Below are positions 8,044 to 54,447 of a DNA stretch of 64,000 nt, piece after piece (position 1 is the stretch's first letter; each line of letters starts with the position of its first letter). Made by a program: the position numbers and the translations under genes. Source of the stretch: Candidatus Poribacteria bacterium (GTDB taxonomy: Bacteria; Poribacteria; WGA-4E; PCPOR2b); assembly GCA_965116925.1 (NCBI GenBank), contig OZ220744.1, positions 6,208,955 through 6,272,954 of the forward strand, written 5' to 3'. The notes under the pieces are model-generated. The model had not been told where the DNA came from. It did not search any database and saw nothing but the letters and a program-made list of their open reading frames with translations.

Positions 8044-8071
8044 GTAGGGAACGCAGATCTGCGTTCCCTAC
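8044..8071. repeat. GTAG-type REP palindrome
   Basis: Perfect 28-bp palindrome GTAGGGAACGCAGATCTGCGTTCCCTAC; variant at 29361-29388. Confidence 0.85.
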
Positions 8072-8075
8072 TTTT

Positions 8076-8183
8076 TATAGTGAATTCAAAAGATAAATAG
8101 ACACTTTCGCTCCCCATGTTTGGTAGGCGCTGTTTCCAACTGCGCCGATTTGGAGTGTTTCATTAATTCTGAGATCTACTATA
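8076..8183 (-). mobile_element. 108-bp MITE-like element, copy A
   Basis: TATAGT...ACTATA termini; reverse complement of the copies at 18210, 19586 and 54340. Confidence 0.85.
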
Positions 8184-18143: not shown

Positions 18144-18209
18144 TCGTCTTTTCTCTCTAAAAATGTGTGTGAAGAGCTGTCTTTTGCAAATTATGGTGGA
18201 TTTTAGAAT

Positions 18210-18314
18210 TACAGTAGATTTTAGAATTAATGAGACACTCCAAATCGGCGCAGTTGGAAACAGCACCTACCAGATGAGGAGCAAAAGTGTCTGTTTATTT
18301 TTTTATTCACTATA
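18210..18314 (+). mobile_element. 108-bp-family MITE, copy B (diverged, 105 bp)
   Basis: TACAGTAGATTTTAGAATTAATG...TTCACTATA, preceded by a second degenerate left end at 18192-18209. Confidence 0.8.
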
Positions 18315-18362
18315 ATTGGACACTATGAACGAGCCCTGATAGATTGGGGTTCGTGGAGTTAC

Positions 18363-18382
18363 GGCACACGGAGTGTGCCTAC
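18363..18382 (-). repeat. GTAG-type REP
   Basis: Minus strand reads GTAGGCACACTCCGTGTGCC (GTAG plus hairpin). Confidence 0.65.
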
Positions 18383-18421
18383 TACTATTAATGTCTACTT
18401 ATTTTTTTAGTTCACTATAAA

Positions 18422-19585: not shown

Positions 19586-19693
19586 TATAGTAGATTTTAG
19601 AATTAATGAGACACTCCAAATCGGCGCAGTTGGAAACAGCGCCTACCAAACATGGGGAGCGAAAGTGTCCCTTTATTTTTAGAATTCACTATA
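19586..19693 (+). mobile_element. 108-bp MITE, copy C
   Basis: TATAGTAGATTTTAGAA...TTTTAGAATTCACTATA with an internal GGCGCAGTTGGAAACAGCGCCTAC. Confidence 0.85.
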
Positions 19694-27551: not shown

Positions 27552-27576
27552 GGGCACCCACAAGGGGTGCCCCTAT
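27552..27576 (-). repeat. GTAG-type REP
   Basis: GGGCACCCACAAGGGGTGCCCCTAT, directly followed by a degenerate MITE-like left end (TATAAAAATAGATTAATGAGGCACTCC). Confidence 0.75.
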
Positions 27577-27648
27577 AAAAATAGATTAATGAGGCACTCC
27601 AGAATTTTTCCGTTGTAACCACTCAATGATGTTGAAAATCCTGAACAC

Positions 27649-40981: not shown

Positions 40982-41120
40982 AGGGCTTACGCAAATTTAG
41001 CATACAAGGGGTAGATTTTTGATTTTTAACCCCCTAAATCCCCCTTATCAGGGGGACTTTGGAAACTTCGCACAGGTCGGAGTTATTGGTAAATGTCCAC
41101 TTATTTTTAGAATTTACTAT
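40982..41120 (+). repeat. Composite intergenic element
   Basis: AGGGCTTACGCA end, CCCCCTAAATCCCCCTTATCAGGGGGACT hairpin, and a MITE-type right end TTTTAGAATTTACTATA. Confidence 0.5.
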
Positions 41121-54339: not shown

Positions 54340-54447
54340 TATAGTAGATTTTAGAATTAATGGGACACTCCAAATCGGCGCAGTTAGAAACAGCGCCTAC
54401 CAAACATGGGGAGCGAAAGTGTTTATTTATTTTTTGAATTCACTATA
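54340..54447 (+). mobile_element. 108-bp MITE, copy D
   Basis: Near-identical to 19586-19693. Confidence 0.85.

Follow-up and report, generated by a model that had tools for sequence, protein, structure and literature searches.

How does a repetitive extragenic palindromic (REP) sequence come to lie inside a transposable element of the miniature inverted-repeat type (MITE), and which machinery spreads it? The question is raised by a 108-bp repeat at positions 8076-8183 of a 64,000-nucleotide stretch of DNA, hereafter the window, which is C1:6208955-6272954 of the single-contig 6.47-Mb chromosome (C1) of a Candidatus Poribacteria sponge symbiont with 49% G+C. A first-pass annotation had described the repeat as a TA-ended MITE with a GTAG-tagged REP at its core, and had proposed a hybrid in which a shell mobilised by a DDE-type transposase spreads the REP. 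Our analysis leads to the same picture. The element is very probably an IS630-type, TA-duplicating MITE with a genuine REP as cargo. We read it as a DDE-mobilised shell that picked up a REP. That the shell spreads this REP is supported by two observations: where sister genomes have an empty site, the unit is missing in its entirety and its REP with it, and 111 of 131 A-type REPs in the genome (~85%) lie in shells. The four full copies that had been listed in the window were all found where they had been placed, with a mean column identity of 89% in their alignment:

8076-8183, minus strand: full MITE copy with A-type REP cargo, its 104-bp body bordered by TA on either side; inserted recently
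8122-8146, minus strand: REP hairpin of that copy, GGCGCAGTT-GGA-AACAGCGCC and then TACC (GGTAG plus hairpin on the plus strand), located by exact match and fold
18210-18314, plus strand: A-type MITE copy of 105 bp, nested in the left end of another copy; REP hairpin at 18247-18271
19586-19693, plus strand: full MITE copy with A-type cargo; REP hairpin at 19623-19647
54340-54447, plus strand: full MITE copy with A-type cargo, polymorphic between species; REP hairpin at 54377-54401

The 25-nt core and a 19-nt stretch of the end occur four to five times each in the window, and none was expected from 100 shuffles. Copy number was determined genome-wide with blastn, which returned 517 pieces, 176 of them full-length (87 plus, 89 minus). 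The chromosome has 685 recognisable terminal repeats and hence about 340 elements. They range from 75 to 330 bp and contain no open reading frame; most are 101-108 bp long, with a second size class at 200-300 bp. The 72 copies of 108 bp include 11 identical pairs, one of which joins the 8076-8183 copy to C1:6366520-6366627. The family is recently active.

Mobility was examined at sites that lack the element. The 8076-8183 copy is missing from the orthologous site in each of the sister species compared (12/12). In one of these, G010, the empty site reads …CTTACTTTT-TA-AATTCAGG (TTTT-TA-AATTCAGG) with a single TA, and the source genome has …CCTACTTTT-TA-[104 bp]-TA-AATTCAAG at the same place. 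The 54340-54447 site is empty in G008 and G004, where CCACT-TA-AA again holds one TA. At this very TA, G019 carries a different member, with a B-type REP and an extra hairpin, in the opposite orientation; it is an independent hit on the same target. Sister species thus show a single TA at two sites, as the proposed TA duplication predicts. For the 19586 copy no clean empty site was found, the related genomes having 0.8-1.4 kb of other sequence between the flanks. The remaining family sequence in the window, and a REP that adjoins the 8076-8183 copy, are as follows:

18192-18209, plus strand: left part of an older member with E-type cargo, cut by the nested insertion at the TA in AGAAT-TA-ATTGG
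18315-18419, plus strand: right part of the older member, with a hairpin plus TAC, GGCACACGGAGTGTGCC-TAC, at 18363-18382
41010-41120, plus strand: member of ~111 bp whose left end is degraded and whose cargo is a palindrome other than a REP, CCCCCTTATCAGGGGG
27574-27600, plus strand: weak left-end-like remnant (…AATAGATTAATGAGGCACTCC), missed by the end searches
8044-8072, no strand assigned: separate, perfectly palindromic REP of another family, with its tag at both ends (GTAGGGAACGCAGATCTGCGTTCCCTAC), which adjoins the MITE and is not part of it

The first-pass annotation had called several of these partial ends. Those at 18192 and 18390-18419 are indeed family sequence but are the two halves of one older member, split at a TA. 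The one at 41093-41120 is a true right end but belongs to the ~111-bp member with a different core, and the one at 27574 does resemble a left end, if only as a weak remnant. The GTAGGGAACGCAGATCTGCGTTCCCTAC hairpin has 167 copies in the genome and is kept at the orthologous G010 site, without the MITE.

The nested pair gives a second view of insertion within the same genome. Uninterrupted paralogs of the nested target, for example C1:5402290-5402401, have one TA in AGAAT-TA-ATTGG. The flank agattttagaat also borders at least six other copies. About 23 kb past the end of the window, a MITE at C1:6296223-6296330 splits an IS200-like Y1 transposase gene (C1:6296113-6296563); when 106 bp are removed and the flanks joined with one TA, a continuous 157-aa Y1-transposase frame is restored. 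Across the flanks of 267 elements the target consensus is A(0.61) W Y(0.95) TA R(0.94) W T(0.65), a symmetric, palindromic site of the kind expected for a dimeric DDE enzyme. Empty sites, nested paralogs, the restored frame and the palindromic target agree: the element is mobile and duplicates TA, as had been claimed for it.

The ends are imperfect inverted repeats of ~29 nt, TATAGTAGATTTTAGAATTAATGAGACAC against TATAGTGAATTCAAAAAATAAATAGACAC, and both start with TA. The consensus ends match at 21 of 32 positions, with the first six nucleotides identical and an inner GACAC/GTGTC pair, which bears out the earlier description of TA-bounded, imperfect inverted termini. A unit consists of TA, a left end of ~27 nt (TAGTAGATTTTAGAATTAATGAGACAC), the cargo, the right end (GTGTCTATTTATTTTTTGAATTCACTA) and TA. 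The 108-bp A subfamily has as its cargo TCCAAATC-GGCGCAGTT-GGA-AACAGCGCC-TACC-AAACATGGGGAGCGAAA, and the B subfamily (102/103 bp) has GCCAAACC-GGTGCGGTT-ACA-AACCGCACC-TACC-GGGGGGCGCAA. Read on the opposite strand, the core is GGTAG followed by a 9-bp stem with a 3-nt loop; the A-type stem contains an A·A mismatch. Folded as DNA, the A hairpin has -8.4 kcal/mol (z -4.3) and the B hairpin -10.7 kcal/mol (z -5.9), and the whole element folds as a long imperfect hairpin with z between -2.6 and -3.7.

One forward REP is the commonest content (179/267 elements). Some members hold REP clusters (B, inverted A, B') in units of ~175 bp; doublets of B plus inverted A, found both free and in these ~175-bp forms, are a minority. 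Other cargos occupy the same position: a hairpin plus TAC (E type; the GGCACACGGAGTGTGCC hairpin occurs 39 times genome-wide) and a CCCCCTTGTCAGGGGG palindrome (P type; 79 copies of the motif in the genome). The CCCCCTTATCAGGGGG cargo of the 41010-41120 member also occurs within intact shells elsewhere in the genome. Forms of 75-78 bp exist without a REP. In one of them, the 78-bp MITE at C1:717239-717316, exactly the 25-nt B REP (hairpin plus TACC) is gone between two ACCGG repeats, through either slippage or precise excision of the REP. In the regions at C1:1325114 and 4565394, a REP-bearing MITE core of ~57 bp has expanded into short tandem arrays inside single shells.

Is the core a REP in more than appearance? 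A search of the genome with the Pfam Y1_Tnp model found five loci. Two, one of them at C1:701212-701685, are 157-aa genes, ~90% identical, that match NF047646 ('REP-associated tyrosine transposase', RAYT) with 121.5 bits against a cut-off of 80; they also match PDB 4ER8 and the structures of IS200/IS605 TnpA. Upstream of both stands GGTAGGTGCGGTTT(C/T)…AACCGCACC, and downstream lie arrays of GGCGCAGTTGAAAACAGCGCCTACC. The hairpins in these flanks are the B and A hairpins of the MITE and differ only in the loop. The same hairpin types lie within a few hundred bases of a RAYT gene in nine of ten other Poribacteria, so the GTAG-REP assignment holds. Stems vary in a compensatory manner (GGCACAGTT/AACAGTGCC, GATGCGGTT/AACCGCATC, GGTTCGGTT/AACCGAACC), and a RAYT of 66% identity has the co-varied GGTTCGGTT/AACCGAACC stem. 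The genome holds ~450 hairpin+TACC units, with the GGTAG tag kept across stem types A, B and C; on one strand of the first 2 Mb there are 73, compared with ~6 in a shuffle of the same stretch. The three types differ in how often they lie in shells. Beside the A type, 78 of 128 B-type REPs are in shells, and no C-type REP (GGCGCGGTT) is directly in one. Some 235 REP copies lie outside shells, the solo units mostly between predicted genes, and free doublets of B plus inverted A resemble REPINs, the inverted REP doublets of other bacteria. The 3' flanks are specific to the subtype, TACC-AAACA for A and TACC-GGG for B, and are common to MITE-borne and free REPs. Judged by its sequence, the MITE core is a true REP of the genome's own REP/RAYT system.

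It could be argued that a GTAG tag plus hairpin resembles a REP by chance, and that the core is plain MITE filler with no link to RAYTs; the hairpin is short, with a stem of 9 bp, and the A type even has a mismatch in it. We give this next to no credence. Hairpins identical except for the loop flank both RAYT genes here and those of nine other genomes, the many copies outside shells share the subtype-specific flanks, and the compensatory changes preserve both the hairpin and the TACC tag.

A genuine REP raises the opposite possibility, namely that the RAYT, an HUH enzyme acting on single strands, moves all 108 bp as one REPIN-like unit, and that the inverted ends are accessory structure. The core is a bona fide RAYT-associated REP, the whole element folds as a long hairpin, and the RAYT genes are present and look intact. 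However, TA duplication and a symmetric target are hallmarks of DDE, not HUH, enzymes. The ends match IS630 elements end for end (see below), the same shell moves non-REP cargo, each unit has a single REP rather than an inverted pair, and in other families of the order REPs do well with no shell. Movement of the unit by the RAYT is therefore extremely unlikely. REPIN, in the sense of an inverted doublet as the mobile unit, was rejected as a name for the 101-108-bp MITEs, which carry a single REP. The REPs borne by the DDE-type shell probably remain substrates of the RAYTs all the same.

The REP/RAYT loci show further features of their own. Downstream of each RAYT gene lie tandem arrays of at least three to four units of ~100 bp (C1:701690-702080 and 329400-329950). 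Each unit of the C1:701690-702080 array, which follows the first RAYT gene, contains the last ~25 nt of the RAYT frame plus an A-type and a B-like REP, which suggests repeated local duplication at the 3' end of the gene. The split Y1 gene at C1:6296113-6296563 is flanked by its own hairpin+TACG repeats, CGGGTTGGGGGACCCAACCCC and TGGGCGAGGAAACCTCGCCCC, and arrays of GCGTAATGAATTACGC-TACT and GGGCAATAAATTGCCC-TACT border another Y1 gene, at C1:6178057-6178692. With Y1 genes that have their own hairpin repeats, the genome contains several distinct REPtron-like systems.

If the RAYT does not move the shell, what does? The first-pass annotation had noted that the window contains no transposase, and no IS630-family or Y1 locus that we located lies inside it, other transposase families not having been searched for. 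Whole-genome searches located cognate IS630-family and Y1 transposases elsewhere on the same chromosome. By pairing family-like ends 0.9 kb apart we found an insertion sequence (IS), here called IS-a, and blastn with IS-a yielded a second, IS-b. The copies of IS-a are:

C1:5137264-5138173, C1:5512151-5513060 and C1:5839297-5840205: IS-a, three copies of 909-910 bp, TA-flanked and 97-99% identical

IS-b has four identical, TA-flanked copies of 910 bp with an intact 277-aa transposase. The protein has the HTH_Tnp_IS630 and DDE_3 domains (matches to PF13358 and PF01710) and scores 130 bits with NF033545, above the cut-off of 100. End 1 of IS-a (TATAGTAGATTTAACAATTAACGATACAT) agrees with the MITE left end at 24 of 32 positions and its end 2 (TATAGTAAACCCAAGAAATAAAGGGACAT) with the right end at 24 of 32; end 1 of IS-b agrees with the left end at 24/32. 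Of 20 genomes of the genus, 15 contain relatives of ~909 bp. As the notion of a DDE shell with IS630 connections would have it, both MITE ends resemble the respective ends of resident 910-bp IS630-family elements. Longer 'elements' of 1.4-1.5 kb between family ends were considered as parents and rejected, being MITEs with unrelated insertions or pairs of neighbouring MITEs.

In the mechanism that we propose, the ~29-bp ends would be bound by an IS630-type DDE transposase supplied in trans, possibly one of the IS-a/IS-b kind. Insertion takes place at TA within the palindromic A-W-Y-TA-R-W-T target, with duplication of the TA. The interior between the ends would have been almost wholly replaced by one REP unit, the GGTAG 9-bp-stem hairpin with its subtype-specific flank. 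Because the REP is carried in the shell, each transposition of the shell would copy it to a new site, independently of the RAYT.

Several observations weigh against this reading. No IS with ends identical to those of the MITE was found in this genome or among 30 IS loci of the genus; the best are ~70-75% identical, and the two ends together score 43-46 of 64 at best. In G002 and G015, IS-b-like copies are numerous and there are only one or two shell ends, while G007 and G008 have ~45 shell ends and no detectable IS. Since MITE count does not track IS count across the genus, the true mobiliser may be a lost or undetected relative. In addition, the transposase gene of IS-a is split into two frames at an A-run (…RKKK…), which looks more like programmed frameshifting or transcriptional slippage than like decay, and could also be a homopolymer error of long-read assembly. 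We place the chance that IS-a-like or IS-b-like transposases are the present helpers of the MITE at about even. Lastly, where the flanking genes are co-oriented, the MITE runs antisense to them 142 times out of 198 (p = 8e-10), a bias seen in all subfamilies. It would not be expected from random DDE insertion alone and implies selection or a coupling to transcription or replication.

On the split gene of IS-a, we observed that the two-frame layout (…YTRKKK…) is found in most IS630 elements of the lineage. Relatives with it occur in G002, G004, G005 and G015, with up to ~18 near-identical copies per genome. So many near-identical copies suggest that the split is native.

The orientation bias deserves closer attention, as it also speaks for a different explanation, in which the repeat is a conserved structured RNA or a regulatory motif (for instance one that ends transcription or stabilises mRNA) that selection maintains where it stands and that is not mobile at all. 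Through the bias, copies follow one another on the same strand over long stretches of the chromosome, as at 3.0-3.4 Mb, where the minus strand bears 35 of 36 elements; free REPs show a weak bias. Local GC skew was considered as a cause of the block-wise orientation and rejected, there being no association (88/87 vs 47/45). The stable fold and the nearly complete restriction to intergenic DNA (2 of 267 elements lie inside predicted genes) would likewise suit a regulatory role. However, species differ in whether a given copy is there, with the TAs as its exact borders; some copies have inserted into others and one into a gene; and unrelated loci have identical copies. No Rfam family reached the gathering threshold anywhere in the window. 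A simple scan of two copies revealed no intrinsic terminator (a T-run after the long hairpin) and no sigma-70-like promoter, although Poribacteria promoters may differ. The first-pass annotation had named a structured RNA or regulatory motif as what would overturn the MITE; with empty sites found and no Rfam match, we regard it as highly improbable. A secondary effect of a mobile MITE on transcription might account for the bias, and a polar effect of the hairpin plus T-run in the sense orientation is a reasonable guess.

Having settled on a DDE-type shell, we consider how it acquired its REP. Within the genus, matches to the strict REP pattern are abundant, and genomes from two further families of the order, in which the left end of the shell is absent, contain 30-110. 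The shell is confined to the genus, two species of which have neither shell nor REP. REPs without shells in other families indicate that the REPs are the older and wider system and were acquired by the shell. Capture or cargo exchange would be the route, and the A and B subtypes, the inverted A and the REP clusters would imply at least two to three such events. More than one acquisition or exchange is argued for by three findings: each MITE subfamily has the 3' flank of its own REP subtype, the A-type REP stands in both orientations within shells, and the unrelated E and P cargos occupy the same position. The same findings speak against a single capture, after which the A, B and cluster forms would have arisen by mutation, deletion and gene conversion with genomic REPs, the MITE centre having no special affinity for REPs. 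Such a history has some merit. The A and B subfamilies have the same left junction (GACACNCCAAAYC before the hairpin), the direct repeats of GGTGCGGTT in the cluster form could give the B form by deletion, and slippage between the ACCGG repeats explains the REP-less 78-bp form. We consider it rather unlikely, though by no means negligible.

REPs and IS630-family elements meet in this genome in another way. A second IS630-family element (C1:1430326-1431774), with ends of the form …ATGAAGWTTAA… and a 384-aa transposase (NF033545, 161.8 bits), has 164 ends genome-wide. It and its miniature derivatives occupy the loops of REP hairpins: in 80 of the 164 a REP half-stem (e.g. GGTGCGGTT plus 1-3 nt) directly precedes the end. 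This element carries C-type REPs, and it is also nested in REPs inside the IS630-type MITE.

Both parts of the MITE are of known kinds; what is new is their fusion, in which the shell serves one REP subtype as its chief vehicle throughout a genus. REPs and REPINs on the one hand and MITEs on the other are treated as separate classes, served by HUH/RAYT and DDE transposases and with very different dynamics, and here they are physically fused. With a TA-duplicating shell as the main carrier of one subtype, the copy number, position and turnover of REPs cannot be read as RAYT output alone. One might go further and suppose that REP hairpins and DDE-type MITEs in Poribacteria form a coupled, nested system rather than a one-off chimera. 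This is a tentative idea that we think somewhat doubtful. Were it true, REPs would be acquired or exchanged repeatedly, and by preference, at the centre of the IS630-type MITE, the shell would give REPs fast, RAYT-independent dispersal, and the REP loops would in turn be the landing site of the second, REP-carrying IS630-family element. It would explain why one REP subtype occurs almost only in shells and why the numbers of shells and REPs vary in parallel within the genus. A DDE transposase would then govern how REP populations change, at odds with the slow model of REPIN evolution in which the RAYT acts alone. With an intact candidate transposase, recent identical copies and clean empty sites, the system is tractable, and it lends itself to the questions of whether the MITE or its host gains from the REP cargo and of whether MITE-borne REPs are acted on by RAYTs. 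The ~340 copies, along with several other repeat families, also matter for the assembly and annotation of Poribacteria genomes.

Among known elements, the Correia elements (CREE/NEMIS) of Neisseria come to mind first. They too are non-coding elements of ~100-150 bp in hundreds of copies, mostly intergenic, with two non-identical, imperfect inverted ends that start TATAGTGGAT, and they insert at TA and duplicate it. To our knowledge, no cognate transposase of Correia elements has been found in Neisseria. In contrast, the Poribacteria MITE has resident IS630-family elements with similar ends; since one of those ends resembles a Correia repeat, these relatives may point to the kind of transposase behind Correia-like elements. 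The interior of the MITE is unrelated, its host belongs to another phylum and its cargo is a RAYT-type REP. The published Correia repeats are tatagtggattaacaaaaaccggtacgg and variants of 26-28 nt (PMC5039591). Compared with four published repeats, the MITE ends are marginally similar beyond the first ~10 bases. With TATAGT, the first six nucleotides, held fixed, the shuffle p-values lie at about 0.01-0.1; taken end by end, the fraction of shuffles that reached the observed score ranged from 0.008 to 0.84. Membership in the Correia family thus failed the sequence test, the likeness in sequence being limited to the terminal TATAGTGGAT.

A closer parallel is offered by MITEs derived from IS630, of which RUP of Streptococcus pneumoniae is a named example (PMC2817692). 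Such MITEs duplicate TA and keep only the ends of the IS, the transposase being of the HTH_Tnp_IS630 plus DDE_3 type; IS-a and IS-b are regular members of the IS630 family, above the NF033545 cut-off. Here, unlike in those cases, the centre is not left over from the IS but is the REP unit of a second, HUH-type system, and the best resident IS ends are ~75% identical to those of the MITE.

The cargo itself is at home among REP/REPIN-RAYT systems such as E. coli TnpA-REP (PDB 4ER8), the REPINs of Pseudomonas and the GTAG repeats (Di Nocera et al. 2013, PMC3733652). It is an extragenic, GTAG-tagged short palindrome in hundreds of copies, its units flank a RAYT gene of the single-copy type, the stem covaries and inverted doublets (B plus inverted A) exist. 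The difference is that most copies of one Poribacteria REP subtype sit singly in a TA-duplicating shell with terminal inverted repeats, so that their spread does not need the RAYT. Insertion sequences that target REPs, including IS1397 and ISPpu9 (Tobes and Pareja 2006, PMC1525189), are paralleled by the second IS630-family element with ATGAAGWTTAA ends in REP loops, the enzyme here being IS630. An IS inside a REP is the reverse topology and concerns a different element from the REP-carrying MITE. Our searches of the open-access literature turned up no DDE-type MITE described with REP cargo, and no account of either REPs or MITEs from Poribacteria. Bertels and Rainey (bioRxiv 10.1101/2021.07.10.451892) stressed that REPINs and MITEs differ in their dynamics. 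The Poribacteria element mixes the two.

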